64,000 bases of DNA from Marsupella aquatica. Lineage: Eukaryota > Plantae > Marchantiophyta. Position 1 is the stretch's first letter. Each line of letters begins with the position of its first letter. The notes beneath the pieces are model-generated. The model searched no databases and was not told where the DNA came from. It was given only the letters and a program-made list of their open reading frames with translations. The position numbers and the translations under genes are program-made. Shown here piece by piece: positions 2,136 to 59,085 of this stretch. The stretch spans positions 17,687,437-17,751,436 of the forward strand of contig OZ316895.1 in the NCBI GenBank assembly GCA_973895155.1, in the 5' to 3' direction.

Positions 2136-2336
2136 GACTTGCGAACTGGCGAGCCCCGCGATTGTGACAGGCTACGGCTAACTCCAACGGGACTTTGCAA
2201 CAAAACGAGGAGCAGGCCTTGAAGGGGGAGGAATCCAGAACATAGGCGCTCACTCCTGACTTCTCTTCCGCTGCATCTTTCATCGCTCTCGACTCCAAAC
2301 AATTCTTCGCGTAGCTCAGTGAGCAGAATTTGAGCT

Positions 2337-4733
2337 ATGGCTGACTTGAACGCTGATGCACAGTATCGTGTTCAAACTCTGGCAATTCCTAAGAGTGTGG
2401 TCGCTCGAATTCCTTTGGCGCCCGACAGTTGTGAAAATTTGAGAACATCGTTACAGCAGCTCGGATTGGAACATCTACTCGCAATCCCTTGGAATGTGGA
2501 GCTCGACTCTTATTTACAGGATTTTGTGAGAGGATCACTGATTGCCCCTGAATTTCGACAAACCATTCGAGCTCGGCCAAGTTTATGGACAGTTGAGCAA
2601 GTAGCTCATGCCTTCCGCTGCCCCTTAGATGGAGAAGGATTATATTCAAAGAAAAAAGATTTGTCCACTCCTTACTTTTCAGGGATTCGCCATCCTACCA
2701 ATGGCTGGAATGTGACACAATGTACCTATCCGGATTTGAGGATTCTTTTAGAATTTCTAGTGCCCATTCTCCATCCGAAGAGACCAACTATCTGCCCTGT
2801 GGCATTGGCGAATACTATCGTAGCTTCTCACAGTGGAGCTATTCAAGTAAATTGGGCGTTGTTACTTTTCAATGTGATGCACGATCAGGTGAGAAGTATG
2901 AAGGCAGGCAGACCTACTTGTCTACAAGTCTATCTATCTCAGCTGTATCAAGCACATGACTGTTTACATCCGGAGGAGAAAACAGAAAGGGGATTACTTC
3001 TGATCGAGTTGGACATTGAGGAAGAAATTAGTGTAGCAGAATCAGAACAGGACATTCTGCTGAATTCCACTGATCAGGATGTTAATATGGAGGATGTCTC
3101 GATAGATGGTTCGGAATTTCCCCCTGAACACAACATGGAGGTCATTTTATACTCTCCAAGAGAAATCAGTGGAGCAGATCAACTTGAAGCTGAAGGAGAC
3201 GAGATTTTTCCTGAGCAACAAGAAGTCGTTGTTGAACCAACTATTACTGCCATACGAGGAGTCACCATGCCCCCTTTTTCGAAAGCAGAGTCAAATCAGC
3301 AGCTTATTGATAAGTTAATCTCTCTCTTCGGTTGCAGTGATGTTGAACTCTACGATGTTGTCTGTGATTTGAGATCCGAGGCAGTTAGCTTATCCTCTCC
3401 ATTTCCAGATCAGCTAACCCCTGTCAGGACCGCTTCTCCCATTGAGAGGTCAGCACCAGAAGAATTTGTTGCTCTCACTCCTACTGTCCCACAGAATCTA
3501 CCTCCAGAGCCAAGTGAACCTGTCTCAAGGATAGGAAACACAAGTTGTGTTGCAATTGTAACTGACCTACTGGAATTGCTTCAGTGTGAACCTGAGGAGA
3601 TAATCTCTGTGGTTAGTGACTTAATTCCGAAGTACACAGAATTCAAAGGCCCTTCCAACCCGGGTGACTGCATTTATAGTCCAGATTCCAATTATGAGCC
3701 AACCGAGGGACCTATTTATACCCAACCACAGTATGAACATCCTTCTGTTAGACAGGATCTTCCTGAGGATTCTGATCCACCCTCTGATTTTGATTCCATC
3801 CGATCTTATGACAACTCTGTCGAGTCGTCACCAAGGCAAGGATTTGAGGATGTTGACACTACCTTAAGATCTGATCCAAATTTAGTGGCAGTTGTCACCT
3901 CCTCTACTCAAACACCCCGGTATTCTGTCATTGAGAAAAGATATACACGACATCCAGAGTCTCAAGTGCAGAGGTACGTGGAGACTTGTAAGATAATGCA
4001 GGCCAACAGACCCCCAATTGGAGAGTTTTGGAGATACTACTACCTTAAGAAGACTGAGGCCAGTTACATATTTGACCTCAGAAGTTTCGGAACTTCAAGA
4101 GTGGAGATGGCTCAATTTGATGAGTTCTGGGCTGACTCAATCTACTTCCGACCCATCCTTGCTATGATGCTACTTCAAGGGGATGTAGAAGTAGAAGATC
4201 CAGATTTGGTTTTGGCCTATTTCGGGAATTTTGCAGCTTACGCTCTGGACTTTGTGATTTCTTTTCTCATGCAGAGTAAGAAATCCACTTCTCACCAGAA
4301 CTCTTACATCCCACGAGAGCCGAAGGTTGTCCTTGTTTCCACCAGTTCCCTAGCTGAGAAACAGAGGATCTGGAATAATGTCACTACTCAGACCCTGGCT
4401 CATTTCAACCGATATTTTAAGGATGTCAGATGGAGACTTCGACCCTTCTATTCCAGGATGATGAATAGTGATGAGTTTCTGCATCACTATCCCCAAGTAT
4501 ATGCTGCCACCTGCAACAACTATGATGTACTAGGGATATACAGAGAAGCTCTTCGTATAAATTCCTGTTATTTGATGAAGCGAATGCCTTTGATGTATCC
4601 TGAGAGACAACTAAGGTGCCTACCCTACTCTCGAGGATCACCACGTCAGACTGAGCTGATGGAGGTAACACAGAATCGGACTGTCACCTACGTGGAGCTG
4701 CTCGAACCCGATGATATTCGACAACAAGCTTGA
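2337..4733 (+). CDS. 798-aa retrotransposon-associated protein of unknown function
   Basis: Long intact ORF. Globular-looking N-terminus (PW..., TIR..P..WT, LEFLVPILHP), acidic S/P/E-rich middle, aromatic-rich C-terminal domain. Confidence 0.8.
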   Translation: MADLNADAQYRVQTLAIPKSVVARIPLAPDSCENLRTSLQQLGLEHLLAIPWNVELDSYLQDFVRGSLIAPEFRQTIRARPSLWTVEQVAHAFRCPLDGEGLYSKKKDLSTPYFSGIRHPTNGWNVTQCTYPDLRILLEFLVPILHPKRPTICPVALANTIVASHSGAIQVNWALLLFNVMHDQVRSMKAGRPTCLQVYLSQLYQAHDCLHPEEKTERGLLLIELDIEEEISVAESEQDILLNSTDQDVNMEDVSIDGSEFPPEHNMEVILYSPREISGADQLEAEGDEIFPEQQEVVVEPTITAIRGVTMPPFSKAESNQQLIDKLISLFGCSDVELYDVVCDLRSEAVSLSSPFPDQLTPVRTASPIERSAPEEFVALTPTVPQNLPPEPSEPVSRIGNTSCVAIVTDLLELLQCEPEEIISVVSDLIPKYTEFKGPSNPGDCIYSPDSNYEPTEGPIYTQPQYEHPSVRQDLPEDSDPPSDFDSIRSYDNSVESSPRQGFEDVDTTLRSDPNLVAVVTSSTQTPRYSVIEKRYTRHPESQVQRYVETCKIMQANRPPIGEFWRYYYLKKTEASYIFDLRSFGTSRVEMAQFDEFWADSIYFRPILAMMLLQGDVEVEDPDLVLAYFGNFAAYALDFVISFLMQSKKSTSHQNSYIPREPKVVLVSTSSLAEKQRIWNNVTTQTLAHFNRYFKDVRWRLRPFYSRMMNSDEFLHHYPQVYAATCNNYDVLGIYREALRINSCYLMKRMPLMYPERQLRCLPYSRGSPRQTELMEVTQNRTVTYVELLEPDDIRQQA

Positions 4734-13037: not shown

Positions 13038-14538
13038 TTGCTAAAGCAGGATCGCAATGCCCATGAGTACCTGGTGTAGGAATGACCCGACTGACTCTTC
13101 GTCAGTCTGTGCGTTCAACAGATTGACAGAAGGCCAGCATGATGTTTGTAATGCAAATGATTTTCTGCTTAAAGCCAGATATTTTACGTCGAAGATTCTG
13201 ATGGGGCCCTCGTAGATAAGAGGAGCAAGATCCATTGTACGTAGAAATAGGTTTGAGAGATGTGGCAAGGCCTCTCTAAGATTAGTGCTTACAAATGTGC
13301 AGCCCGGCGTACCTGCAGGACCCCACGAAGAAGAACAAAGGAGACGTATCATGTTCATTGAATAGGCAGCTTGCACATTAACTGTCGTTTTCCCCCTTTA
13401 TCGAGATTTTGGCCTTTGGGATCATGTCTCCCGGTAAGGCGGTTTTGTTCCCCCTGCAGTTCTATTTAATTATATTTATACTGTCGCAATGGCGCACATT
13501 GCCGTTCGTTGACCTGGCCGAGGGTGCCCTGGGTTTGGAAGTAGTGTCTGGTGGCGCCTACTCGAAAATAGCCTATAGTCCGGAGTCACTGTATACACGT
13601 TACGAAGAAAGTTGTTGAATTGATGCACAGCCGGCGGTCTACGTGGTGTAGAATCGGGGCAGATTTTGCCGAACTTCTGAAGTCCTCAACCGTCAAAAAG
13701 ATTTGGACAGACATTTGCCCCACTTAAGAGTGCGCGTGTACTCTGGTGAGCCAATGTTTTGTATCGTTGACTTTTTAAGCAATATATATTTCATGTGAGG
13801 CTCGGACAAATTTACCTAAATTTCTCTAGCAATATTCTGCTCGATATTTCCATCCGCATCCCTCTGTGGCTTGTGCAATGGATGATTGCTCTTCCTGTGT
13901 CATCGTGAACTCTTTACGAAAGCCTTGAGACGATCATTCCTGGAGATATAATCTCTTTACAACTCAATTGAATACTCATAGCCACGTAAAATTGATCTAT
14001 TAGGGATTAGGCCGGGATTGGCTGTGAGAGTTTTCGCAAAGTGCGCGCCGAGTGATGCCGGAAAGAGCCGCTGAAAGTGGAAAGGGGCTCGTCGTGTATC
14101 GTGTATATATACATGGAAGCTTTTAGATATAAACACTGGTGCGAGTTCTTTAAAGCACTTGAGATTTTTTTATGTATTGTGGAAATTTGAGAACAGTAAC
14201 ACCCAAAGTACAGGTCCCTATGGAGCCGCGAAGGCAATACAGTCATCTCCTGAGGAGAAGGGAAGCGCACAGTGTCCCACAAGATACTTCCAAAGTGGCA
14301 ATAAATGGTGCAGGACTAAATTCCGAAACGTCTCTTAAAGTAGGGGAAGGAAATTTCTCTTTTGAATGCCCCAAGCAAACCAACTAAAGCTCCGTTGACC
14401 CCTTTGCATTGTTCACTGTCCTTTAGATTCTTCACCTCAGTACATCATGTCGAAGGAGTTGCAATCTGCACGCGGCAACAATGTCTGATTCTAGAGATGA
14501 ACAAAACATTGTCCAACCCGTCCCCAGGAGTTCTCCTA

Positions 14539-15117
14539 CACCGTCAACAAAAAGAAACTACCAAATCCCCCACGAAACATTCATAGAATTATTCCACCAT
14601 GGTTTTTCCATTCACGGTTTCGGCTTTCTGTAATCGTAGTTAAATCGATTTTCAGAACAGTGCCCACCATGAAGAATGTGTCTGGGGATGGAATAGATTC
14701 CCGTATATTGAAAATGCTTACCGGTTCTCAGATTTGACCATCAATTGGAAACAAGTTAGAGACCATTTGACACGACCGGATCATGCGAAATCCTGGCTGG
14801 TGTATTGCTTCCGATGCCTCTGGAACAATTGATTCTAGGTAGCATACTCATACAAATCTGAAATATAGCTTCACCTTTCCGCATTGCAACCTAATTATGC
14901 TGACATCTTCCAAGACAAGCACAAACCAAACCAATGCAGTCATGGGCAGACCATGAACTGTGAAAAGCTATTGAAGGGATTGTAGTAACCAATACATATC
15001 CCTGTATATGTATTAACTACTATTACAGAAAACCTAAACCGTGAATGGAAAAACCATGGTGGAATAATTCTATGAATGTTTCGTGGGGGATTTGGTAGTT
15101 TCTTTTTGTTGACGGTG
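14539..15117. mobile_element. MITE / non-autonomous TIR element with about 105-bp TIRs and TA flanks (Tc1/mariner-like)
   Basis: CACCGTCAACAAAAAGAAACTACC... on the left and its near-perfect reverse complement ending at 15117. TA on both sides; no internal ORF. Confidence 0.85.
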
Positions 15118-16684
15118 TAGGATTACAGGTGACTAGACCATGAACGAGAGTGTTCATGAGATCATCAGAACACACCATTTGACTATATTTCGGAGCTTAG
15201 TGAAAGTCTGAAGATACAGTTGTTGTGGTGGAAGCAAAGTTTCTCATTTTCACTGTTTAACGCTGACCAGTTGCAGCTATAGCTCCACCATGGGAATCAG
15301 TGTTTCCTTGTTTGTGCGAATTTTCAAAACATTTGCTACCAACACAGAGGTTTCCAAAAAGATTTAGTTAACTAATCCAAAATCAATGGTCCAGATCTCA
15401 CCATACATGGATCTAACAGTCATAATGTGATAATACAAGTAAAACATACAATAATTAGAGGCTTATCAACCCCTCATAAGTGGGGTCATTGTAGCATGCC
15501 AAGAAACAGTAAAAAATTCTTTGCATGAGTAATTGTTTTTCCTCACATGACCCCTAATTTTTCTATATCCAATTGCTTAGCTAATAAGAAGCTGGTTGAT
15601 AACGTACATTTTTGGGGCTCCTCTTTTTGCTAGCAAACCCGCTAGCCATCTGGAGTCATAAAGAAACACAAAAAATAGAAATGGCAGAAAAAAAGCAAAT
15701 TGAAATTTAAAACTTTTAGTGCCTGCCTAACAACACTCTTCTTGATAGCAAAAGTGCTGTTTGCTCGCATTATACAATACCTTCCATAAGTGCCACCTGC
15801 AAAATACAAAAAGGAACATAGATGGGAACGCTTACATTAACCATGTGTCACTCTATCTTTATTGTATCCATCATTTCAAGAACGAAGTAAAGTGTTGCTT
15901 CTGACTCTTGAGAGAGATTTGCTTGGTGGGGTCTCACTTGAAAGCTGCCGACTTAACAAGTCCCAAAAAGTCCAAAATGACTTGGTGGGACCTCAAACGT
16001 AGGTTGGAGCCGTTTAGCAAGAAGTTGCCGGGCCCTGCAGATTTCTGACACCATACCTAAGTGAGAACAGGAAAATTTTACGTTGGGGGGGAGGGCAGGG
16101 CCTGTGTATTGTGTACCCATTGGAACACTCACGGGAGGCAAGACCCCACTGCATCACTCACGGGAGGCGAGGCCCTGGACTTCCTAAGTAAAACGTCGAT
16201 TGCCATTGATTGAGAACCCAATGTTGATACATTGTGGTGGATTGTCGAGAGTCAAAGCTGCGCTGCACCCGGCGCTGCACTGATTGAGAGGAGCTAGAGG
16301 ATTACTGATCGTTGAGAGTGATTGATTGAAGCTGCGCTGCCCTCCGGGCTGGGCTGCGAGAGGGTGAGGATCGTACAGAGTGATGTGGTCGATGCTATGA
16401 GGAGAGCTTTGACTGGAAAAGTGAAAGGGCTGATCGCCTGAAGCTGATTGAGCTCTCGATTGAGCTGCATGTTGGGGAAAGAAGTGATTGAGATGCGTGC
16501 TGGCCGGGGAGAGAAGTGAACTAGGTGCGTGCTGGAGAGAGAAGTCAGCGCGCTGCGGATCACTTGGGAGCAGTGTCGGTGCTTCATGTTGCGTTCTGGG
16601 GGGAGGAGTTAATTTGTGGTTGAAGCTGCAGTGCTTACACATTGCATCGCTTGCTCTGTGTAAGCTGTTCAGGAAGACTGTTCA

Positions 16685-17290
16685 ATGGCTAAAGCTATAG
16701 AGAACCATTTTGACAGCCAATTCTGGGTTGCTTGTCATGCATTGCTCTGGTTACTTGTAGAGGCACTTAGTGCCATTTTTGGCACTGTGCATCTCATGTT
16801 GGAGCGACTCCGCCCACTCCCTACTGCACTTGGATCTGAGCCAACAACTGTGGAAGGAGTCGTGCCTATCGACAATGAAGAGCTTCGTGGAAATGTCCAC
16901 ATATATCCACCCAATTGTTTAGTGTCTACTCCTTGCGCTACACCTAGTGCATTTCTCGGTAGTGCAATCACTAGACCATATAATTGTAACCTAGGAGTTT
17001 TCTCCAAGCAAAAATGGTATGCAGTGGCCATAGGGAGAACTCCAGGAATATACAAGACTTGGGAGGAGGCTGCCAGACATGTCAATAAGTACAGTGGGGC
17101 CAAACACAAGTCCTTTACGTCTATATTACAAGCAGAGAATTGGATGGACAGGGAGTTGGCTGCCACAGGATATATCCCATATTCACGTCATAGGCAAAAC
17201 ATAGAATTTATGGGATTAGACGATGCAGGGCATCATGTTTATAGATGTGTGTGTTGTGGTGAGATATTTTGTGGAAATGGCGAAATGTAG
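16685..17290 (+). CDS. MULE accessory ORF with an RNase H1 N-terminal hybrid-binding (caulimovirus viroplasmin-like) domain
   Basis: KWYAVAIGRTPGIYKTWEEAARHVNKYSGAKHKSF...AENWM (17012-17146) fits the YAV..GR..G.Y..W..C...V..Y.GA..K.F consensus. Hydrophobic N-terminus; C-terminal H..RCVCC....C. Confidence 0.85.
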   Translation: MAKAIENHFDSQFWVACHALLWLLVEALSAIFGTVHLMLERLRPLPTALGSEPTTVEGVVPIDNEELRGNVHIYPPNCLVSTPCATPSAFLGSAITRPYNCNLGVFSKQKWYAVAIGRTPGIYKTWEEAARHVNKYSGAKHKSFTSILQAENWMDRELAATGYIPYSRHRQNIEFMGLDDAGHHVYRCVCCGEIFCGNGEM

Positions 17291-17416
17291 AGATAGGGAA
17301 TTCTCACATACCAATTTCCCAATTTTGGAATAAATATGAAGCATTTTATTTGAATGAAGTTGGCGTGCAATTACAGTGGTTTTCTTGCTGCCTGTTTCTG
17401 TATGGTCCATGTGATT

Positions 17417-20279
17417 CTATGGGTCAAATGCTCCACTTGCTGATTCTCTTGCTATCTCATCTGCAAGGCTAATGAAATAATCCATGTCACTGACTTCACT
17501 TGGTTCCTGATCTGAGTTCATTGGATCCACACTATCAGATTCACATGAATTGTCTGAACTGTCCAACAATACTGCAAGTGGGCCTGATGGGTTCACTAGC
17601 TGAGAAGTCGGTTGTGCATGGTCACCCAAGTCTTGTCCATCATCTTCTGGTACTACTTGTGCAGGAGTTGTACCTCTATTAACAGGACAAGTTCTCCTGT
17701 TGTGGCCCACTTGACCACAAACAGAGCATTTTGTCTTTCCAGTATTCACTTGAGGCCTCCTGCTAGTCCTGGTTGAACCCTGCCTTCCTCTTAGAACTTG
17801 TTCGCACCTGGCTGTAGTTTGTGCAGTTTGCATTGGTGTGATCCTATGACTGTCATCTCGAATTGGAAATTGTCGAAACAAATTACCCTCTGCATCCACA
17901 TACTTGTCTTGAGCAAGTTCTGATGCTATGGATGATCTGTTGCCTCTCTCAATCTGCACCACTCGATGCCTGCCTTTTTTCACAGCTGGAATAGGAGGTA
18001 GAGAGTGCTCTGACGGGTCTAAATCAGAAACCAGGAAACAAGGTACCTTAGGCTCATATAACTTTCGCAAAGAAGCCATTTTCCAGCAGTGGTGGAAATG
18101 TTGAGTGAAGTCCTTCCCGTCCCTGTCATACCAAGCCATTAAATGTTCACATGGCCATAACATTTCTTGTATTTCCACACAACTGCAACTGAGTTTTGGT
18201 GATAGTGTGACCAAATACTCCTCTTGTTGGTCTGTGGTCTGAACTTTTGCTTGGCATTGTCCATCATCTAGCACTTGCCACTGTCCAAAGTTTCGCAGGT
18301 TCTTTGTGTGTCTCTTCAAGGCTTGCTGGCTGTAAGTCTCTTGTCTTGCAATTGCAGCGGATTTCTTGTTGTTGTAATGGGTCTGGATGTAATACCACAA
18401 CTCCATTAGCACTTTAAAAGGTGAAAACTCCCTAATGGGAAGCAGACCTGAGTTGGCTTGCTCCACAGGGTTGCTGGTAACCTTCCCAAGTTGGGGCAAG
18501 GGGAATGCATGTCTAGCATAACAATTCTCGTCCATGTCTCTGATGTGCTTCAGCCCCGTCTGACAGATGATGACAAGTGGTCCAACAACAGCTCAAACTT
18601 GCAACCCATGTGAATGCCAATGTATAAGCAAAGTCAATCTATGTAAGGTTTAGCCCTTCCTTAGTCAAACTGAAAGTAAAACATTTCACTGTACTAGACT
18701 TGGGCCTTAGCTTACCGTCTCTTAGTGTTGGCATACACACAAGCCAAAAAGATTCGTTCCGCTCCCTTGCCGTGACATTTCCTAACATTGGCTCTCAAAT
18801 GGTTGGCACAGTGGCCATGAACTTTTGTTGGGAACACATTTCGAACAGCTGCTTGCAAGCCCTTCTGTCTGTCAAAAATCAATGGAATCGTAGGGTCTAC
18901 TATGCCGTGAACTGATCGCTCCAACCATGACAAAAACCATGTCCAATTGTCAGTATTTTCCACAGGAGCAATGGCATAACATAGAATGTTCACTTGAGAG
19001 TTTCCATCAAGTGCTGTAGCTACAAAAAGTTGAATAGGATACTTCCAATTCTTGGTGTGGCAAGCATCAATGCACACCACAGGTTGGCTGTACTGTAAAG
19101 CTATGCGGGTTGCAGATGGGCATATGAAAGCTCGATTGAAAACTCTACTGCCTTCCACAGTAGACCAATCCACTACACACTCTGGATCAACAGCCTTCAT
19201 TCTATCCAGCAAAGATGGGATTAGGAGGAAACTCTGGCGCTGGCCACCAAGGTACCAATCTCTAACAAGATCTCGAGCCTGCCACATCTGATGGTAATTA
19301 CAACTCTTTTTGTAGTCCATCTGGAGTCCATTTAACATTTCCTTCACTGGCACTTGGACATTCAGCACTACTCGAGGCGCTAGCGTCACACCCAACCATG
19401 CAGATTTTTGGACAGGGCCTCGCCACTTATGCTTGTAACCTAGACATGTATGCTGCAGATTGCATACTGTGATTGTAAACTTCCCATCCTTCTCACGTTG
19501 ACATCTTACTCAAATGGGCAGGGCTGAATCAATTCAGTGTTGTCACTGTCTTGTGGTGGCAAGAACCGACATTGCTCTCCACATGCTCCGGTTTTTGACT
19601 GATTCCGCAGCTTCGCCCCTGCTGCCTGTTGCTGTGGAAAACTTGCAGGGATCCACTCCCTAGTATGTGCCACGTATTCTCTTAGGTTATTGTTAGTTCC
19701 AATGGACTGTGGAATAGTATTGGCCACAATTTCTTGTAATGGTGTTGTGGAATTGATGGGCCTTGGAGTAGTTGTCAGTTCCCCTGCAATGTCTTTGTCA
19801 CCACAATCTTCCTGGGATCCTGCCAAATTACTAAATTCAGCCGGGAATTCAGCTTCATGAAAGCCTGCAATTTCTATCTCAGAGTCTGGGCCTGAATTTG
19901 AATTGCTTCCTCTCCAACGAGGTCTGGTGTTAGGTCCAAATCAACAAACTCTAACTCTGAACTTGTATTTTGTCGCCAGCCTGTGGCTCACCCTCCCATA
20001 TAGCACACTCCATGAATCCAAGCAGCGATCAAATTCATTAAAAGTGGAGAAAGATTCTCCAAGCCTAATACGAGTAGCCTCCTCTTCCACCTCATGTGGG
20101 GACTTCCCTCTCAATAGTGGATTAACTTGTTCAATCTCAGAATTCCAAACTGCAAAATGACCCTGCAGCTCATTGCTTGGAGGCAACGGAAGCCTCTCAT
20201 GATCTGGAATGTGTAACGGATATGCATCCCCTCTCATCCAATCTGGCACTTCATTTTCATCACAGACTTCTGCCTCCAT
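17417..20279 (-). pseudogene. MuDR/Mutator transposase, disrupted
   Basis: MULE core (CIDACH...ATALDGN...ENTDNWTWFL...IFDRQKGL...HGHCANHL), SWIM zinc finger (CSC...PCEHL), zinc knuckle (CSVCGQVGHNRRTC). In-frame stop near 19941, frameshift near 19506, probable intron at about 18600-18715. Confidence 0.9.
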
Positions 20280-21708
20280 AGTGCAGTTCTATTCACAATT
20301 AGAAATTAGAAAGTGCAATTGGACAATCTATAGTGCAATGTCCAATTTCCAGTCTCGGGTGCCCTGCACACTGTTCCTCTCCCCACAACACACCTGCTAG
20401 ATCACAAAAGATTGGAAGGCTAATTTCGGGTGAGCCAATGCTAGCAGTGAAACCCTTCTCCCAACATGGAGCGGCAGATCGTCAAGTAGCCGCCCCGCTC
20501 TGCAACACAGAGCATCAACAACGCAGCTTCAACTCCCGGCAACTGCTGCTCGATCGTCGCATGTAGCCCGAAGCAGCAGTTGGGTCGCCGCATGTAGCCC
20601 TTAGTAGCTGCTCGAGAGTCGCATGAATGTATCCCTTTAGTTAGCGCCTTAGCAGAATGGAGAGAAAAACTGAGCATTGAATGGGACCCTGAACTCTGGC
20701 AAAAGATCCTCTCGTCGCAGCATTTACCAGCGCACAGCACAGTCACCCTAAACCCACGACATTGTTCTCAGCATGTCTGGACATTGTCCACATCACTCTC
20801 AAATGATACTCTCCGCTCCTCTTAGTGCAGCGCAGCATAGCTTGGACTCCAATCAACCACAATGTATAAACATTGGGTGCAATGGCACCCTGACTTTTTG
20901 CCACGAAACTCACGGGAGCCTTGCCTTGCCTCCCATGAGCGATGCAGTGGGCTCAAGATAAGCAGTGGGCTCCAGATAATGGGTACACTTCACCTCCCGT
21001 GAGCGATGCAGTGGGGTCCAAATAATGGGCACACAATAAGTTCTCCCTATCCTCGCTCCAACGTAGCTTTTTGCCGTTCTACAATAGGGTAAGGTGCAGG
21101 GCCGGCAAAGTCATACTAAACCCGGTCGATCCTATGTTTGAGGTCCCACCAAGTCATTTTGGACTTTTTGGGACTTGTTGAGTCGGCAGCTTTCAAGTGA
21201 GACCCCACCAAGCAAATCTCTCGACTCTTGACCGCTAAGTTTTTGAACTCCTCTAACAGTTAATGTGCTCCCAAAAATCCATTCCAAGAATGTCTCGTAT
21301 CCACATCCATTATTAAGAATATTAAGAGTGCTGGGGCGAGCACTTACGACGGGTATAGGATAAGTTGAATACCACGACGAAGGAGGTACAGTAGTAATCT
21401 CTCTCATTTCATTGTTAATTTATTTATTGTCATTAATATATGTGTAAAGCAACGGATCATATATCCTCCGCCGATAACTTTTGGCAGTGATTTGTCTGTT
21501 GAAGGTCAAACGAGCCTTTACTTCTTTGTCGATTCCAAGATCCTGGTTGATATGATGTCTCCGTTGCAAGTAAGGAAGGACCATGATTACCCATTGATGG
21601 GTGTTTGGCTAGAAATGGGCTTATTCTTCGGACCTTACAGTAATTGAAATATAGTCTCCTAGTCCATGCTATTTAATTACCCACGATCAATTCAATTCTA
21701 CAGTGTGG

Positions 21709-21914
21709 CCGTTGGATAGGGACTGTTTGATGGAGAATACTGTGCACTAATTCCGCTGGAAATCAATTTTTAATACCCTAACAAGATTGCATACTGTACA
21801 AGTATATGGGACCGTTGGATAGGGACTGTTTGATGGAGAATACTGTGCACTAATTCCGCTGGAAATCAATTTTTAATACCCTAACAAGATTGCATACTGT
21901 ACAAGTATATGGGA
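21709..21914. repeat. Perfect 103-bp tandem duplication
   Basis: 21709-21811 is repeated at 21812-21914. Confidence 0.9.
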
Positions 21915-22170
21915 GGGCCCCCGGCCCTTGCTGTTGTGTAAGGATCCCTACATTGGGGCAGCTATCTGTACAGTGTCAGGGAATTTGGTGATCTACAATA
22001 TTATGTGGTGTCTCGATTTTGTTTGGGGTGATTGATGGCATTTGGTCACAAGGAAATAACCCTAATTTGTTTTCAAAGTTTTAATAGCTTTTGTTTACGC
22101 TATATTACATTGACTGTTCCAGTTGGCCTACTTGTTGAAGGTAATTTTTCATATATTTGAAGGATCTCTG

Positions 22171-22515
22171 TGTTGAACATAGACAAAAATTGCAACTGCA
22201 AGCCCATGAACCATCCAATGCACAAGAGTCGACACAGAGAGATACGTGATTCACCTCCTCATGAGGCTACATCCACGGGAACACACACGAGTTTTACTGC
22301 ACTCTAGGCCGACCGGCCATACCAAGCATCCACAATGCAAGCTCTCTTTATCTCTCAACTAGCTCCGTAACAATGAGCCTGAGTTCCCACTCTCCAAGCA
22401 AACACCGCTTGGTTATAGAGTGTGCACAGCATGACTAACCTAACCAAGTCTGCGACTAAGGTTAGCCTTAACTACGATACAGTTGTAACTCTAAACCTAA
22501 GAGTAAATCCTAACA
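22171..22515 (-). mobile_element. Copia-family solo LTR
   Basis: TG...CA termini, 5-bp TSD CTCTG. Reverse-strand similarity to the LTRs at 28498 and 40611. Confidence 0.9.
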
Positions 22516-24269
22516 CTCTGTACGATTTAAACTTTGAGGTTTCTAAACATTTTGATGTGGAGGCCAAAGCCCAACTTTTTCTTTTCATTTGTCAACCGTA
22601 GTGGATCATTAATCAAGTTATGAATAGCATAAACAAACTTGCATTTGCAGAAGGTATTTCATCCTTTTCCGGGTTCCATGTGTGCAACCATGGTAGATCG
22701 TTGATCAAATTGTGATTGGCTGTGGACACCTCCTGACATTAGGCTATTGGTTACAAATAGTAGCAACAAGACCCCATTTGCAGAAGGTATTCCAAATCCC
22801 TTGTCGATAATCACACATCAAAATGTGATAAAATATAATGTGCACTTGATTTAAAGAAGATAACTAGATTTATCATGGTACGGAGAATGTCATACACCAT
22901 ATATGTCATATTTTGATGTGTAACTACCGGCTCCAAATCTCTGCAATTCAAACTACGTGCAGTCATAAATTATTCATAACATCTTATTCACAACTTATCT
23001 TATTTGTAACTTCTAAGATCTTATGAACTGAAGGTCTGCCACCTACTTCCAATGACTATGTCCAACTGTATTAAGTTAATGCTCCCTAGTTTTCTTGGGG
23101 CCGCATACATTGCCCCTCCGGTCCCCAATACATGTTGCCTGCTCGGGTGCCTGCTCTGGCTGGATTGACTTTGTTTTCTATTCTTTCAATATCAAAGTTG
23201 GTTGACAATCTGGTTTATGTTCTGCCAAGTGTTCTTCCCCTCTTGAGTCGTGGTTGCAGGTCTGGCAGTACTTTGTTCTAGGTGGAGTCATGGTTGCTTT
23301 GCTAACAAAGTCTAAGTGTTTTCAGACAGAGCCTGGTACTTTGGTCAAGAGTCATGATTGATAGACCCGGATTGACAGAGTCTTGAATTGTGTTGCAAAC
23401 TTGTGCTTCCCCTATCCCGAGGTCTCATTTAGTCAAAAATGGCACATCATATGTGACAAAGTATATTGTCATTTAATTCCCAATTGGATTTGTTTAGAGT
23501 GAAGACTTGGTTTGTTTGTGAAAGAACTTAGATAGGGTTTTTAGCCCACTCTTGGAATATTTTTTAATATTCCAAGAGTTTTTAGGATTAGTAAAGGTTG
23601 AAATTTTCCCTATTTTTCTTTAAGTTTTAGGGTGTTCAAGTCTTCAAAACTTTTGCAAGTGGTGGGGGCCCCTATGTAGTGAGACCCCCAAATCCCAACA
23701 AGAGTCAGGACTATTTATATGGCAATGAACACTGAAATTTGAGTTTGTTTATCAATTTGTAAACACTCTTAAGTTCACCCTCATACATGGCTTCCATAGA
23801 CAACTCCGGGACAGCAAAATGTGAAGGGTGCCAGAACTCAAACTTAAAGTAGATACACAAATCAAATTGATCGGGAGCAGACAGCACACATTGGGGACTG
23901 GGACAAGTAAAATACAGGCCCCAACAAAAACTGGGGAACAGTAATTTGACTTATTTAATGCAGGGTTTATTTCCATGGAGAACAGGTTCTCACGATCGTA
24001 GTGCTTGGGGACACTGTGTCATTCCAAGGCTTGATTCAATTTTCTGGAAGTCTCAAATGTCAGAAATCCGCACTGTCAAGGTTGAATTTATTCACTAATC
24101 AATGTGCAACATGTCCATTGTTGAGTTTTTGGCTGACATTCTTGAAACACAATATGGGCTTATGACTTACCATCATTTTTCTTCTGTGTGCTCATCAGCT
24201 GTCTTGCATTTTTTCCAAGATTGCTCATGATGTTCCTTATGCTAGCTTCCATATCATAGCCTTCCTGCC

Positions 24270-26691: not shown

Positions 26692-27359
26692 TGTTAAGGA
26701 TTGCTCTTAGTCTTGTGACTCAAAGGTTACGATAATTAGGTTAACCTCAGTTAGGGACTTAGCTGAGGTTAGATTAGTTGTGTGTGACCTTGCATATATA
26801 CCAGGGCTAGTGTAAGCCGCTGGTATGTGGTGTTTGCTCATTGTAACGGAGCAACTTGAGGAAGAGAGAGAGCTTGTGTGTTTGACTACTCTAAAGTAAA
26901 GTTGGTGTGTTCATTGTTAGGTATTTACTCAAGGTCTAGGGTTACGACATGTAACCATAGTTAGGCTAACCATAGTCCGAGACATGGTTAGGTTAACTAG
27001 GATGCACACTATATGTCAAGCGGTGTTTGCTTGGATAAGTGGAACTTAGGCTCATTGTTACGGAGCCAATTGAGAGATGAGGAGAGCTTACATTATGGAG
27101 ACTTGGTATTGCACATGGGCTTAGAGTTCAGTAAAGCTCTCTTGTGTGATCCTCAAGGAGGTGAACCACGTATCTCTTGTGTCGACTATTTGCGCATTGG
27201 ATGTGTCATGAGCTTACCGTTGCAATTATCGTCTATGCTCAGCATTTGTGTGGACGTAACCTTGGAGAAGAGGTGAACCACGTATGGATTGTGTCGACTA
27301 CGTGAGCATGGTATGAGTCATGATCATATCGTCATGAAGGAAGACATCATACTTCAACA
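26692..27359 (+). mobile_element. Old solo LTR containing a second solo LTR (26915-27244)
   Basis: Outer TG...CA with degenerate TSD TGGTA/TGATA; inner TG...CA with TTCAT/TTTGT. Both resemble the local Copia LTR family. Confidence 0.75.
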
Positions 27360-28380: not shown

Positions 28381-29274
28381 TACATAATTTCGCCAAGATG
28401 CACATGTAAGAATCAAATTGGATATTCAAGAAATATACCCTTCTCTGTTATTTTGTCGTTTAGCAAGACAGTCAATCAAAAGTGGCCACGTGGGCCATGT
28501 TAGATAGTGCTCTAGTCTTGTGACTCATGAGCTAACTATAGTTAGGCTAACTCAGGTTAGGACTTAGCTAATGTTAGCGATAGTGCTGGTGTGCATATAG
28601 CCAGGGCTGATGCCAGACCCTGGTGGAACTTAGGCTCATTGTTACGGAGCTAGTTGAGAGATAGGGAGAGCTTGTGTTGTGAATGCTTGGTATGACCGGT
28701 CGGCCTAGAGTGCAGTAAAGCTCTTGTGTGTTCCCGTGGACGTAGCCTCATGTGGAGGTGAACCACGTATCTCTCTGTGTCGACTATTGTGCGTTGGATG
28801 GTTCATGGGCTTGCAGTTGCGAATGTCGTCTATGCTCAACAAGTGGTATCAGAGCATGCTTGGGAGGTGATGAGGTTTTTTCGTGACAGGTTTTTCCAGC
28901 GTTCATTGTCGGTGGCACATTCAGAGTTTTGTCGCATGAAACTTGAATGTATGTGGCTATGCGGATAGGTTAGTGAGAGGGCTTTCTAACGGTGGTTAGA
29001 ACTCGCTGATCCGTGGTGCGGAAGAATTGAAGTTTGCATCATTCAGGGTTTATTCGTGTTCGACGGTATTTCGGGGGAGAGACCAGAGATCGTGTTTTTC
29101 AACGGTATGAGCCGTGCGGTGCGGGAGGGATCGCACATTATAGCTCAAGTTAAAGGTTGAAGCGAGCTGGTCGTTTCGGTAGTTGGATAGCTGCCAAGTT
29201 GTTACTGAGTGCGACGTGACGAGTGAAGGAGGCATTCAGGTTTTTTCACAAGCTATGGAGCTTGTTCTCATCTG

Positions 29275-29618
29275 TGTTGAGCATAGACGAAATTTGTAAT
29301 AGCAAGCCCATGAACCATCCAACGCACAATAGTCGACACAGAGAGATACGTGGTTCACCTCCACATGAGGCTACATCCACAGGAACACACAAGAGCTTTA
29401 CTGCACTCTAGGCCGACCGGTCATACCAAGCATCCACAGCACAAGCTCTCCCTATCTCTCAACTAGCTCCGTAACAATGAGCCTAAGTTCCACCAGGGTC
29501 TGGCATCAGCCCTGGCTATATGCACACCAACACTACCGTTAACATTAGCTAAGTCCTAACCCGAGTTAGACTAACTGTGGTTAGCTCATGAGTCACAAGA
29601 CTAGAGCAATATCTAACA
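29275..29618 (-). mobile_element. Solo LTR of the same Copia family, inserted in inverted orientation in the 5' UTR
   Basis: 344 bp, TG...CA termini, TSD ATCTG. Reverse complement of the host LTR. Confidence 0.93.
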
Positions 29619-30912
29619 ATCTGAACCGGGTTTCTCTTTACAGTGACATTTGACTCGGTGGAAGAAACGCGAAGTGCTCCGGCTCAACAGTTTGATCGCG
29701 GCGAGGCGGTCATTTTGAGCCCGGGATTGGCACTTGACGCGGAGTGAAGGCGACACGGCAGAAATTTTTTACTGAGCTGGGGCTGCATACTGTGCCGATG
29801 CAATTCGGCAACTTTTTCCATCAGCGGCATTCATTTTTCTCGTGAGAAACAACAGCTTTTCAAGTGAGTTTTTTCATTCATTTATCCCGTGGGAGTTTTT
29901 TGGTTGTAAGGGGCTTAGCGGAGTCCCTTTGGTGTGTACATCTTGAAAGAGTACACACACCCGAGGGTCCCCCATTCACCCCGTTACTCCCCCCGCCTCG
30001 CGTACGTTGTTTCCCCCCGCGCGCACCCCAGTTTTAACGGCACTCCGCAGCGCCGGCCTGCGCATTTGCAGCCGCCCGGCTGCTGCCACCCTTCGGCCTC
30101 CTCGCGCCCTGGCCCTTTGTATTCCCTTATCACCGGGCGCACCTCGCTCCCCCTTCGCGAGCCGGCCCCGACTCCCTCCTGACAGGTTTCTCCTTATGGC
30201 CGGCCCTGCCTTTGGCCTACCCCCCCCGTTGCGACCTTCAATTCAACCGGCGCCCCTCCCCGGCGCATGGCGTACAATCACCCCCCTCCCGACCCTGTAT
30301 TTGGCTGCCTTATACGCAGCCGCCCAACGCCCTTGCGTACTCTGTGTGCCCTTGTACTCTGCGTACACCGACGCGCCTTTTTTATACATGTATTTTCTGA
30401 TTTAGCACCCCCTTTAAGGGCCTATTTTGAACCTTTTTTCCTTCCTTTTGTTTCCTCTTGTGCCGGGACCTGCCGCCCTCCGTTTTAACCGCTCCGACAA
30501 GGGGAACGGCCCCCTGTGAGACCTGTCGGACTGTGCGGGAATATTCCCAAAAAACATGGAGCTGTTTTTCGGCCGTCCAACAAAGATTTCATCCTCCAAA
30601 CGGTAACTTTTTTTGGTTCTTTTTTGGCAAGGACGTTGCCACTGGAGTTAGCAACGCGGCGCACCGATCACATCGCGATTCCGACGACGGGTTGTACTGG
30701 GTATTTTGGTTATTCTCCAAGGTGGTCAAAATGGGGGAGTTTCCCAAGGTTTTACCCACCCCGACTGAAATTTGAATAACTTTTCCGTCGAATTTCAATT
30801 TTGATTTTGGCTTTTAGTATTGGACTCCTAGCTTCGTGGGCTACGTGGCGGTGTTGAGTTTTGAGTTTTATGAGAAGTTTCAAAAAAAGACGTTTTTTTG
30901 TGATTATTTTAT

Positions 30913-34011: not shown

Positions 34012-35512
34012 TGCAAGTAGAGTTATTTAGCAATGTGTGACTATTTGTATGTGGATTACTCATTCCTATTAGGCTACGACTTAGTTCTAGTTAACCCTTG
34101 TGGTTTTTAGGGGGAGACCTCGTTTGGTGATTGTCTAGAACTTCCCGTTGAGGATTCCATATGGTAGCATTTAGTCTAGTCCCCAAGACAAGAGTCAAGG
34201 AGGAGTTTGTTAGATATTGTTCTAGTCTTGTGACTCATGAACTAACTACAATTAGGCTAACTCGGGTTAGGACTTAGCTAATGTTAGCGGTAGTGCTATT
34301 ATGCATATAGCTTGAGCTAATGCTAGACCCTGGTGGAACTTAGGCTCATTATTACGGAGCTAGTTGAGAGATAGAGAGAGCTTGTGTTGTGGATGCTTGG
34401 TATGGCCGGTCGGCCTAGAGTGCAGTAAAGCTCTTGTGTGTTCCTGTGGACGTAGCCTCATGTGGAGGTGAACCACGTATCTCTCTATGTCGACTATTGT
34501 GCGTTGGATGGTTCATGGGCTTGCAGTTGCGAATGTCGTCTATGCTCAACAGGCCAACCCCTCAACAGACAGGTATTATATAAGGGCCACCGCCAATGAG
34601 TTTTTGGCATCATTATCCAGAGTAGAGTTTTTTTTGGAGTTGTGTTCTTGGAGCAACATTTTGTCTGTTGAGCCATTCGTTTTCCCTGATTGAGGGGAGG
34701 TATGCAAAGCCCCATAGTGTCTCGGATAACCATGTCTCAATCAGACATAGATTCACCTTCAAGTTTAGTTAAAATCCTCTCCTAATGTTGTCGCTTGCTC
34801 TTTGCTAAGTCGCATCCCTAAAGCTCTACCTCTCGCATAGTAGATTGTGCCTGAAATCTTTGACTTTGATTGGGATTTTGATGCAAGTTCTAGTCCTAAG
34901 CCCAATTCTTACTATGTGTCGCCTAATAAACCTGAGAAGTGTTCTCTATTGAGCATTCCATCGCCAAGAATTGAGAAAATTTCAATCCCACGTTTAGGTC
35001 TGAGATGTCGCTTCAGGCCATCCATCCCGGGTTATGGAGAGGGTATTCGGCAACTGATATGCGTATCGCACTCGGCATTCAAGTTGCCACATTCAACTCA
35101 CATTCAACGATGGATTTTTCAGTCTCCGGGTGAGGAACAGGAAGCAGAAAAGAGTAAGTTTCTAAACCCGTGTGTTACTCCCAATAATTTTATTGGGTTG
35201 AGGATTCCAATGCTTCTTCTTTGGTAATTGTGTGTGAATATATTGTTTGAATAGCTTGAATACTTATCCCAATAAATTTATCGCTGTCATGGTTTAACAT
35301 TATGGTAATCAAATCAAGTGTTTGAATACTGAACCCGATAAATTTATTGTTATCAATCCAGCAAAGTTCTAAAATTTTTTATTATTGAGGAAAATTCTCA
35401 ACATTGCTAAACGAGCATCGGAAGGCACAAGCATTGGAGAGGAAGAACTTAGCAAAGCACCTGAGCAAATATAACAAGAGTTCTGAGAAATATTTGGAAC
35501 ACAAATTTGGAC

Positions 35513-35990: not shown

Positions 35991-36029
35991 AAAGCTTTAT
36001 CAAAATTTATCGAACAAAGGAATCTAGAA

Positions 36030-36230
36030 TGTGATAAATTTATTGCATGTTTGTTGGAATCTTGAATCCAACAGAGGAATGCATACTACGATAAAATTAT
36101 CGCATGTTTGTTGAAATCCTGAATCTAACCAAGGAATGCAGACTGCGATAGTTTTATCGCATGTTTGTTGGAATCCTAAATCCAACAGAGGAATGTGGAT
36201 CGTGATAAATTTATCGCATGTTCACAGAAA
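36030..36230. repeat. 57-bp tandem array, about 4 copies
   Basis: GATAAATTTATCGCATGTTTGTTGGAATC-like units at 36033, 36090, 36147 and 36204. Confidence 0.8.
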
Positions 36231-36849
36231 TCCTCTCACATTGATAATGAATTAATAACAAACCTTACATAATTGATAATACTCGAATCGAAATGCAAAT
36301 TCCGATAAATTTATCGGGTTTTTGAGAGAAAGATTCAAATCTCCTTATAGGAATTTAAGACTTGATAGGAGTTTGGTATTTTCTTTAAGACAAATGTTGT
36401 TTGATTTGGCAATCAAACTAAACTTTTATGGCCATCTCGCTCCTCCTTATATAGGGAATGCTCTAACCATGGTTACTATTTCCCACAAACCATGGTTAAC
36501 TTTGCACTAATCTGGGTTAGTGCGTGGTCGACTCTTGATTACGTGATTGGGACCAAGTTACTCATAGTTGGGACTTTGGGCAGCTTTTGAAAGTTACAAA
36601 TGTAAAACCCGATGCACGTATCACTACCTACATTCCTGCGATGATGCAATGTCCAAAACTGATGTTTTTTTGATTTGACATCCATTTTATTGGAGTTTGC
36701 ATTGCCTTAGAAAAAAATAGAGTCGGGCTAAACGAGAAGTGTGTCACACTTCTTGGTCGGTCCGAAATCGTGTTGCCATGAGGGTGCGATAAGTTTATCG
36801 CACTTTGCATTCACCTAGAAGACATGGCCCCATCAAACACCTAAGCCCT

Positions 36850-37290
36850 GAATCCATCACAGGAATGCACACTCTGATAATTTTAGCGGATGTCCTCTGA
36901 ACCATCTTCAATCCATTAAAGGAATGAAGACTCCGATAAAATTATTGGAGTCTCAAATCATCGTCAATCAATCACAGGAATGGAGACTCCGATAAATTTA
37001 TCGGAGTCTCAAATAATCTTCAATCCATTAGATGAATGAAGACTCCGATAAATTTATCGGAGTCTCAAATAATCCTTAATCCATTAGATGAATGGAGGCT
37101 CCAAGAAATTTATCAAAGTCTCAACTAATCCTCAATCCGTCAAAGGAATGAAGACTCCGATAAATTTATCGAAGTCTCAAATAATCCTTAATCCATCAAA
37201 GGAATGAGGACTCCGATAAATTTATCGGAGTCTCAAATAATCCTTAATCCGTCAAAGGAATGAAGACTTTGATAAATTTATCGGACCTTG
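36850..37290. repeat. 57-bp tandem array, about 8 copies, built around a palindrome of up to 28 bp
   Basis: GAGACTCCGATAAATTTATCGGAGTCTC is a perfect palindrome at 36983-37010 and recurs with variants every 57 bp. Confidence 0.9.
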
Positions 37291-37979
37291 AATATAGTCT
37301 ATGGAATGAATGCTCACTCCTATAATTCTATTTGATGTTCTTCAAACATATTCAATTCTTCAAAGGAATGTAACTGAGGAATGCAGAATGCGATAAATTT
37401 ATCGCAATCTGCTCGGGTCAGGACATTGACACCACATGACAAGTCAACCTTACATAGATGTTACTCAAACTGGAATGGTAGTTCCGATAAATTTATCGGG
37501 TTATCTGGAGAAAGAGTCAAGTCTCTTGTGAGGAATGTAAAACTTGATAGGAGTCCAATATTCGCTTTGAGTGAGGTGTTGTTTGCTCTGGCAAAAATAA
37601 ACCTTTCATGGGCAGCTTGCTCCTCTTTATATAGGGGATGCTCTAACCATGGTTTTTTTTCCCGTTAACCATGGTTACATTTGCACTAACCCGGGTTAGT
37701 GCGTGGTGGACTCTTGATTACGTGGTTTGGACCAATTTACTCGCAGTTTGGACTTTTTCACAGACCAAATGTAAAACCCGATGCATGTATCGCTCCCTGC
37801 ATTCCTGCGGCGATGCAATGTAGGCAACTCGTGTTTTTTTTATTTTTTGGCAGTTTTATCGGAGATTGCATTGCCTTAGAAAAAAAATGGAATCGGGCTA
37901 AACGAGAAGTGTGTCACACTTCTCGGTCAGTCCAAAATCGTGTTGGTAAACATCACTTACTTGGTAGTCTACAACTCAT

Positions 37980-38840: not shown

Positions 38841-40610
38841 ATAGTGGGGATTTTACACGGGATTTTAGTGAAGGAAGACGGTAGACAGTGCTGAGTCTGA
38901 CGTACACCTCAGATTGTTCAAAGGAATCTTATGGGCTTCATCTATATATAATTCTCCACATTTTGTACACGTGAAAAATTGAAGGAGTTGCATCACTTTC
39001 AAGAATTTGAGTTTATTGTTTGCATAGAAACCTAGTTGTTCATATCCTATGAGGTTGCAGTCAATCCTTGTGCATGTGACGACTTGTCTGAGTGGCCGGT
39101 GCAAGTTTTGCTCTGTGTGAATGGGACGGTGTGTGAATTGACATGAGTCATGTGACTACCGGACGTTCACTTCAAAGTGTAGTACCCTTGGTTGTTACGC
39201 CTGAATACCGTATTACATGAAAACTTCTACAAACTTTTCCATGTGTGTAATTTAATGCAATTTGGGGGAACGTTGAACATGTCAGTCCATAACTTGAGAG
39301 AATTGCAGTCCAAGAGGGTATTAGTGCTCCGCAATTTCCAAGCGTCAAGAGCTAAAGCTGTTGAAGTCCTCAAACTTGATCAGTTTCTTGTGAACTTTGT
39401 GGAGAGTTTTGCTGAAACTACAATGGCGAGGTCAAAGGTGATGTCGGCCAGAGATTCAGGCCACCCCATCATGACATTTGCACCATATGTGATTGTATTG
39501 TGGAGTGATACAACGGACTCTGAAAATGTGGAAGCAACCAATCCGCAACATGTGGGTGAGGGTAGCTCATCACAGGCAAATACACATGTTGCTGTGGTTG
39601 CAGCACATCTTGCGGAGGCAGTGCAGAATGCGGACGGGAAGGGGGAAGCACACAACAATGGCACCAGGGATGTTGCAAAAGTTGCGCAAAGAAAGCCTAA
39701 TTGAAGAGGCAAGCCACTACAAAAAGTATTTGACAGAAGGAAAATTAAGGAAAGAGTGGAGGAGAAGAAGGCATGCATGGAAGACCGCTCAAACTGGTCC
39801 AATGACTTTGACAATGGACAACTCAATTCCAATGGGTACCGATGGGAATGGCCTCCTCTCTAGACACTCTTCTGGACAATTGAATCACCACTGAGGTGGT
39901 CAGACCCATGTTTAGGTGAATAGTCCTATGTAGTTCATAGTTGTGCAAATGTGGTGCATTTGGAGTAGAGTTAGTTTTCAAAGTACATTCAATGACAATG
40001 CACTACAATGGAAGGAGCAATTGTAGCTGGAATGTTTGGTCTAGACCATATGAATAAATATAGTGATGAGAAATACAATGTACACGCAATTGTTGGTTGT
40101 TTGTGAAATCCATGGTCTTTTGGCACACTACATGAAAGAATACATGAAAGGTACTAGAGAAAAGTCCCTCCAAAGACTCCATCTGGTTTTGACTTTGAGT
40201 ATCCAGGGGAGTAATTATTGTTAGCATTTGCAAAGTCCCCTACGGCTAGAGGTGATTCCTCAATGTCCTCACCCTCCTTGATCTTCATCTTTGATCCTTT
40301 CATCGCTTTGGAAGAGCGCGTTGTTGCATTCTCTTTTTGCAACATTGGGAGAAATGTTCTCGTGCTGAACTGGAATTGTTGATGAGGGCAATGGTTCATC
40401 TCTCAATGTTTGCACAAATTTCAGGTGCTTCATTAGCTGCAACTCTGACTCTCTCTTTTCATTTTCAAAGACTTTTTGAGTCTGATGGTCCAGGTTATCC
40501 ATGTTCAAAGAGAAAAGTTGAATCTCATACACATCCTCCATAGCACGAGCCCTCTGATTCAAAGGAACGACAATCTTTGATGTGGATTTGGTCAATGCTC
40601 TTGTTCTTTG

Positions 40611-58400: not shown

Positions 58401-59085
58401 TACTTTGGCAGATGTAGTGGTGGCAAACCCATTGCACCAAGACATCATTGGGACAGCGGCAACAACGGCAGGGGCAGCAGCATCACGAGCAGCAACAACG
58501 AAGGAGGCCAAATATGCTGCACGAGCTTCATCTGATAGCTTCCTGCCCCTTGCTCTTGAGATATTTGGGCATCTCCATCATCAGTTCGACGGGCTTCTTC
58601 GCCAAGCTGCTCGGGATGTTCACGGCCGCATGGGTCCCACCGGGCCCCCGCTATCTGTTTTGACCACGCACTTTCGCCAACGCATTTCAGTCACCTTACA
58701 GCGTGCTCAAGCTCGGGCCGTCTATCGTCGATCTCTGACAGTGGGTGCTAGTGTGACTCCGCAGCGGCTAGCCCCCCTCGAGGACATTCCTGTCCCACTT
58801 GCCGATCTAGTTTCGACACTTGATGTAGACCACTAGCTTGTTGCCACATTTTCTAGGTATGATGAGGACCTCGGTCCATTGCGGTAGTTTTAGTTCCTCT
58901 TTCTTGGTTTTTAGGGGTTTCCTTTTGCTCACTTCTTTTAGTTCCTCTTTCTTGGTTTTTAGGGTTTCCTTTTGCTCACTTCTTTTGCGTTTGGTTTTGT
59001 CCACTTGGGACCTCTCTTGTTTATTCTTTTGTACTCTATTTGGCCTTTTTCTGTAAAAAGTATGTGTATATTCCCAAAATTTATA
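55457..59085 (+). mobile_element. CRE-clade-like non-LTR retrotransposon (RT plus restriction-like endonuclease), near full length, disrupted
   Basis: N-terminal CPEC..HH..C; RT motifs VRPIAIGEVFLRL, QFAVG..GGCE, DVSNAFNTVSR, GTRQGDPLG..LF, SDDT; zinc knuckle CTCG...H...C; HDAVRD; RVDL..ADV; KEAKY; FLPLALE.FG. One frameshift near 56190 and stops at 56773 and 57799. C-rich 5' end; 3' UTR with a 48-bp duplication. Ends are approximate. Confidence 0.88.

Follow-up and report, generated by a model that had tools for sequence, protein, structure and literature searches.

A putative accessory gene encoding an RNase H1-type hybrid-binding domain in a Mutator-like element of the liverwort Marsupella aquatica

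The function of the accessory proteins encoded by Mutator-like elements (MULEs) is a long-standing question. The two genes of MuDR are convergent. To our knowledge, its accessory protein MURB has no recognisable domain and is not known to have an RNase H1-type hybrid-binding domain (HBD), and we know of no molecular reader behind the preference of Mutator for transcribed, open chromatin. The caulimovirus protein P6 is a silencing suppressor. MURB binds the N terminus of MURA and is needed for insertion (PMC12973397), and the VANC proteins of the Arabidopsis VANDAL MULEs, whose domains are named as DUF1985 and DUF287, recognize DNA motifs in a sequence-specific manner (PMC5735166). Accessory genes in MULEs are thus already known (PMC6446971); the accessible main text of that article contains neither the term "RNase H" nor the term "Cauli." The Pfam model of the HBD, Cauli_VI (PF01693), has been tabulated in accessory proteins of active plant transposon clusters (1 of 1,846 for MULE, 3 of 775 for CACTA, and 1 of 217 for PIF/Harbinger) and within the transposases of three of the 217 PIF/Harbinger clusters (PMC12973397 Table S6). 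The term "Cauli" is absent from the main text of that paper, and its MULE entry is tabulated without discussion. The domain was also found in capE, a captured gene of a fungal (Pleurotus) Helitron (PMC4289320), and a term search in the accessible main text of an Arabidopsis transposon-product atlas from 2026 gave no mention of Cauli_VI (PMC13547354). In the accessible text of these sources, the earlier transposon cases amount to entries in tables or to one captured gene, with no analysis of family, selection, or function.

Here, we analyzed a 64,000-nt window (the whole stretch of M. aquatica DNA under study), which consists almost entirely of repeats and retroelements and contains a MULE with a second, intact ORF (Table 1). 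The element was assigned to the MULEs by the size of its target site duplication (TSD), its long terminal inverted repeats (TIRs), and its MULE-type DDE transposase with SWIM/CCHC fingers; the TSDs of MULEs range from 8 to 11 bp (PMC6446971). The inverted arms were initially detected at 15912–16039 and 21095–21222. The outermost 87 nt of the TIRs are near-identical, and the identity falls to 75% over the full length of ~260 nt. No second copy of the element was found within the 64-kb window. The exact TSD, the TIRs, and the open frame confirm the first-pass annotation of a TSD-bounded MULE with an intact convergent ORF of 201 amino acids.

Table 1 Features of the Mutator-like element and its accessory ORF (positions in the window)
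Feature	Position	Strand	Remarks
Mutator-like element (MULE)	15912–21222		5,311 nt; TIRs and exact 9-bp TSD
Left TSD	15903–15911	.	9 bp; identical to 21223–21231
Right TSD	21223–21231	.	9 bp; identical to left TSD
Left TIR	15912–16170	+	~260 nt; 75% identity to right end over 261 columns
Right TIR	20990–21222	-	pairs with left end
Subterminal non-coding region with short degenerate direct repeats	16250–16630	+	32-nt unit ×1.9; scattered 16–30-nt repeats
Accessory ORF	16685–17290	+	606 nt; 201 aa; intact; convergent to transposase
N-terminal hydrophobic helix, aa 2–42	16688–16810	+	predicted; pLDDT >90 over most; KD19 1.87
PYNC motif, aa 98–101	16976–16987	+	ahead of the domain; each position retained in 13–14 of 15 rows
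RNase H1-type HBD, aa 110–153	17012–17143	+	PF01693 match; 1qhk and 3bsu matches
His/Cys tail (H169, H183, C188, C190, C191, C196)	17189–17278	+	three strands predicted
MULE transposase pseudogene	17417–20279	-	D, D, E motifs; SWIM-like and CCHC-like fingers
31-nt tandem repeat	20536–20628	+	~2.6–3 copies; upstream of transposase

The transposase gene matched the Pfam family MULE (PF10551) with an E-value of 2.9e-14. The SWIM and CCHC matches were weak (E 0.024 for SWIM, where the curated cut-off was exceeded only by the homolog P0156). The four closest matches showed 59–63% identity, one of them being from a liverwort. Among proteins of 465–2,000 amino acids, six matches were obtained, and the three with species names are all from liverworts (Calypogeia fissa, 63%; Riccia sorocarpa, 42–43%), which by themselves would suggest a bryophyte host, probably a liverwort. 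A transposase scan of viral sequences gave no match. Alignment to the homologs located an in-frame stop at 19941–19943, and a frameshift lies at 19511–19512, where other copies carry one extra base at 19511. A second frameshift probably occurs near 18560, adjoining a probable intron from 18715. Because the transposase is broken, the copy in the window is probably dead. The coding DNA of the element is depleted of CpG (observed/expected 0.28–0.37), which suggests long periods of methylation for the element copies. The first-pass annotation had set the lesions of the transposase against the openness of the shorter ORF. The lesions were verified, but the openness is uninformative, since three to four lesions in ~2,760 nt spare a 606-nt ORF with a probability of 0.42–0.52. 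The Pack-MULE trait of a non-autonomous element that has lost its transposase was ruled out, as the element retains a full-length, though broken, transposase gene.

In the two non-coding ends (15912–16684 and 20280–21222), the hexamer AAGCTG occurs eight times in inward orientation, whereas in 200 shuffles no hexamer occurred more than seven times; two of the eight are mirrored TIR copies. It is a possible, weak candidate for a binding motif of the transposase or the accessory protein. Outside the MULE, a small MITE-like element was observed at 14534–15122, its 110-nt inverted arms being 97% complementary, and just left of the MULE lies a repeat (~15480–15780) on which far more contigs align than on the MULE itself. 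To the right, there is a perfect 103-nt tandem duplication at 21709–21914. Dispersed repeats of ~300 nt in both orientations (22167–22516, 27017–27244, 28498–29622, 34204–34551, and 40610–40923) are likely the termini of another TIR element, and arrays of 56–57-nt units occupy 36000–37400. Retroelements include non-LTR retrotransposon reverse transcriptase frames at 55400–58833, interrupted by a few stops, and a Ty3-type pol at 2–1816. The latter adjoins a 799-amino-acid open frame (2334–4730) without a Pfam match, possibly an extra retrotransposon ORF.

The stop codons of the accessory ORF and the transposase gene are 126 nt apart. When the 1,247-nt interior outside the transposase was shuffled 300 times with dinucleotides preserved, no ORF of this length arose. 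The hydrophobic N-terminal segment and the C-terminal Cys/His cluster claimed in the first reading are both present. The helix ends in a conserved H-x-x-L-E-R-like motif, whose Glu40 is almost invariant in the family described below. The His/Cys tail lies outside every Pfam family and is likely zinc-binding. The alignment-based model of the protein had a mean pLDDT of 76; for the core, alignment-free folding yielded a poor model (pLDDT 44), which was set aside. In a wide structural search, the matches were dominated by the N-terminal helix (Z ≤ 4.6). A search of the ESM Atlas with the whole protein returned only leads below 0.9, which were basidiomycete Cauli_VI clusters, and the tail alone gave no usable match there.

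Cauli_VI was the sole Pfam match of the accessory ORF. It covers residues 110–153 with an E-value of 2.2e-17 and 63.5 bits against a cut-off of 21, and it spans all 44 model positions. The closest solved structures are the N-terminal domains of yeast and human RNase H1 (1qhk and 3bsu), and the predicted HBD superposes on the human HBD (3bsu) with an rmsd of 0.7–1.3 Å. An RNase H domain is absent from the ORF. The full-model match together with this absence bears out the earlier description of an HBD without a nuclease, and the identity of an RNase H1 enzyme was rejected for lack of the catalytic domain. By alignment, Trp43, Lys59, and Lys60 of the human HBD correspond to Trp126, Lys142, and Ser143, the human numbers being assumed from residue spacing and chain length. 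The equivalents of Tyr29, Trp43, and Lys59 are thus present, and Lys60 is replaced by Ser. In the family, the Tyr29 equivalent is retained in 15 of 16 rows, the Phe61 equivalent in all 17, and the Trp43 equivalent in 13 of 17. Position 59 is Lys or Arg in 12 of 17 rows and Glu in the other five, position 60 is Lys in only four of 17, and the charge of the HBD is merely mildly basic in several members. The mutant W43A/K59A/K60A is the standard non-binding HBD (PMC6868509). Since the Trp, 59, and 60 positions vary across the family, hybrid binding is plausible but not assured. The Kd values of the human HBD are 0.2 μM for the hybrid, 4.9 μM for dsRNA, and 23 μM for dsDNA (PMC5737507), and these affinities favor hybrids over dsRNA as the ligand.

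Figures for related proteins were obtained by a phmmer scan, which gave 1,834 matches at E ≤ 0.001. Among the best 150 of these matches, which were examined, 22 resemble the query beyond the HBD (Logan contigs supplied 21 of them and ENA one; longest contigs, 0.9–3.6 kb). The layout of this family is a hydrophobic helix with the H-x-x-L-E-R-like end, a variable linker, the PYNC motif, the HBD, and a tail with the pattern H-R...G-x-D-x-x-G-H-x-V-x-x-C-x-C-C...F-C-x-N. The HBD and the His/Cys tail occur together in 16 of the 22 members, and an RNase H domain is absent from all 22. Core identity among 18 aligned rows is 26–100% (median 36%). In the tail, His169 and His183 are retained in 17 of 17 rows, Cys190 in 16 of 17, and Cys196 in 15 of 16. 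Where conserved Cys columns are substituted, the replacement is Tyr in nine of ten cases, and truncation is seen in several members, a pattern that fits decaying methylated repeats; four Tyr in a single column may instead be a subfamily trait. The helix has a KD19 above 1.6 in five of 11 members, whereas the best window reaches only 1.1–1.2 in four of them and 1.09 in one more of the same cluster. Three family members (P0058, P0113, and P0125) have the N-terminal helix and the HBD without the His/Cys tail and are either a subfamily or truncated copies.

When a tail profile was run against 152 proteins, 20 matched, 18 of which were rows used to build the profile, and no match was found among the multi-HBD or RNase H proteins in this set. 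In a quick tree built from 49 columns of 152 HBDs, one branch (SH-aLRT 90) contained the 22 family rows, two further members, and three unrelated rows, and the family HBDs grouped apart from the sampled RNase H1 domains. A metagenome scan with the single accessory protein gave no match. Scans with a five-sequence alignment detected 80 metagenome and eight viral loci; neither a related transposase nor the His/Cys tail was present at any of these 88, so they match via the HBD only. Likewise, no viral protein matched the accessory protein beyond the HBD. No distant member of the 22 could be placed in a MULE, their contigs being 3.6 kb or shorter. Protein searches found related liverwort transposases but no named liverwort protein of the accessory family, the word-indexed search being insensitive (one and two matches).

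Copies of the element were sought in public sequencing data. Six runs from three coded organisms contain part of the element, all as contigs, and four cover more than half of it; the best-covering run may be the source of the window itself. No RNA run is listed among the six, which carries no weight for or against expression. Element copies were read from runs X1, X2, X3, and X6 and ORF copies from X1–X4, X5 and X6 holding small shares only. In region 17131–17288, X1 contains four distinct sequences, whose differences number 0, 28, 35, and 26; the fourth also has two gaps. The alignments of the diverged contigs start at the ATG (16685) or 11 nt upstream and end at 17288–17293, with unlike sequence outside. 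One diverged copy has 98 nt of the linker swapped for 113 nt with the frame preserved, and other copies carry ORF frameshifts, as expected of dead copies. The genomic context, which covers only copies with at least 80% nucleotide identity, is given for one lineage by a 1,477-nt contig. This contig carries the ORF end (17002–17289) with 35 differences in 288 nt (88% identity) and, 198 nt beyond it, the 3′ end of the transposase gene (17444–17554) on the same strand and in the same geometry. The joint occurs in two of four runs, both from one study, and it indicates that the convergent pair persists in one or more lineages at 88% identity. Separately, contigs of X2 and X3 that join 17124 to 20973 and 16241 to 19854 point to internally deleted, non-autonomous derivatives.

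Selection was assessed from the 40 best supported of 143 differences, which were pooled, unpolarised, and counted without a codon model. On this basis, the whole ORF has 21 synonymous and 19 non-synonymous differences (pN/pS 0.25). For codons 95–201, the counts are 17 and 9 (pN/pS 0.13, p 7e-7), and for codons 1–94, they are 4 and 10 (pN/pS 0.78, not significant). In the 28-difference lineage, 21 of the differences were classed, 14 as synonymous and seven as non-synonymous; when the seven remaining were all counted as non-synonymous, pN/pS was 0.25 (p 3e-4). Overall, the core pN/pS from the listed differences ranges from 0.12 to 0.25, and the core (codons 95–201) is clearly constrained between element copies. 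The ratio below 1 proposed as a check in the first-pass annotation thus applies to the core and not, with significance, to the N-terminal half. Several diverged copies, the purifying selection, and the wider family without RNase H all support its reading of the ORF as an element-borne accessory gene. The ORF is very probably an accessory gene that has some function and is kept by selection, and it is likely to be a mudrB-position gene under selection and not a recent host capture.

Compared with the known systems, the ORF resembles mudrB in being a second small gene inside the TIRs of a long-TIR Mutator element with a 9-bp TSD and in being selected among copies; the likeness described here is one of position. 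VANDALs are not known to have long TIRs, whereas the element in the window has them. With VANC, the ORF shares its coding by a MULE, a division into conserved and variable parts, and short repeats in the non-coding ends of the element. It has neither DUF1985 nor DUF287 in a Pfam search at E up to 1 (domains as named in PMC5735166), and VANC identity was therefore rejected. With the HBD of RNase H1, P6/TAV, and ANKLE2, it shares the full-length profile match, the fold, and the Trp43 and Lys59 equivalents; it differs in being a single domain with no nuclease and with Ser for Lys60. The PYNC motif, the His/Cys tail, and the hydrophobic helix that flank its HBD were not seen in the RNase H1, P6/TAV, and ANKLE2 proteins. 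The factor had been called undescribed at first, and this stands for the family: no description of it or of a hybrid-binding MULE accessory protein was found in the literature covered, to which subscription papers and preprint supplements do not belong; the one tabulated MULE entry may belong to the family. It does not stand for the presence of Cauli_VI in transposons, in view of the MULE, CACTA, PIF/Harbinger, and fungal Helitron entries.

By analogy with MURB and from the recurrence of the domain in transposons, we tentatively suggest a possible role, one that falls short of being probable: the product of the ORF, a conserved MULE accessory gene, may be a MURB-like cofactor, a predicted hybrid binder that would direct the transposase to transcribed chromatin with R-loops. 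The ORF would be transcribed from the left end of the element, and its HBD is predicted to bind RNA:DNA hybrids at R-loops. The hydrophobic helix may contact the transposase or further copies of the accessory protein, and multimers formed in this way would add the avidity that a single HBD lacks. The His/Cys tail would fold around zinc. The transposase might thereby be delivered to R-loops. The occurrence of Cauli_VI within the PIF/Harbinger transposases suggests a role coupled to transposition.

An unlikely alternative is that the protein is an anti-silencing factor, which binds hybrids or dsRNA at the element (convergent transcripts or scaffold RNAs of RdDM) and shields them from host silencing. 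Read-through across the short distance between the two stop codons could yield dsRNA, and caulimovirus P6 shares the HBD by computation. Short repeats also lie at either end of the element, a hexamer is mildly enriched, and the anti-silencing VANC proteins of VANDALs target non-coding tandem repeats (PMC5735166). However, the VANC domains are unmatched here, and, in contrast to VANC, an HBD confers no sequence specificity. The affinity of the human HBD for dsRNA is about 25-fold lower than that for hybrids (Kd 4.9 versus 0.2 μM, PMC5737507), and the CpG-depleted coding DNA suggests that the copies have long been methylated.

A rather unlikely reading follows the proposal made for ANKLE2: the HBD fold would act in protein docking, on a scaffold that is oligomeric or anchored in a membrane, and the protein would recruit a host factor instead of nucleic acid. 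ANKLE2 combines a transmembrane helix with a caulimovirus domain that supports the interaction with PP2A (PMC11103583). In the accessory family, the hybrid interface varies in its basic residues, and the hydrophobicity of the helix is transmembrane-like in the five of 11 members above the KD19 value of 1.6. Against it stand the five low-scoring members noted above and the retention of the equivalents of Tyr29, Trp43, and Phe61 (15 of 16, 13 of 17, and 17 of 17) and of Lys or Arg at position 59 (12 of 17).

The last explanation, a captured host gene of the Pack-MULE type carried passively in one MULE family, with the distant homologs being bryophyte host genes or genes of other elements, is improbable: although MULEs are known to capture host genes (PMC6446971) and all 22 distant homologs lie on short contigs (≤3.6 kb), the ORF is under purifying selection between element copies, its conservation is limited by the start and stop codons, it forms a complete gene without introns, as opposed to an exon of RNase H1, with a nuclease in no member, the family HBDs stand apart from the sampled RNase H1 domains in the quick tree (SH-aLRT 90), and the homologs show repeat-like decay patterns.

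If the product does act as a cofactor that guides the transposase to R-loops, a wider but doubtful extension is that a bryophyte MULE lineage has long kept a dedicated R-loop reader to tether its transposase, with R-loops as the insertion-site signal, and that the domain was co-opted to this end in separate events by CACTA, PIF/Harbinger, and Helitron elements. As both the ligand and the interface residues of the domain are known, the idea of its function is directly testable. If R-loops are read, this would be a new route of transposon targeting or silencing evasion, and the protein would provide a small nuclease-free R-loop probe. If they are not, the ORF would still represent an accessory family that is new and under selection, in a group of plants that has been little sampled.
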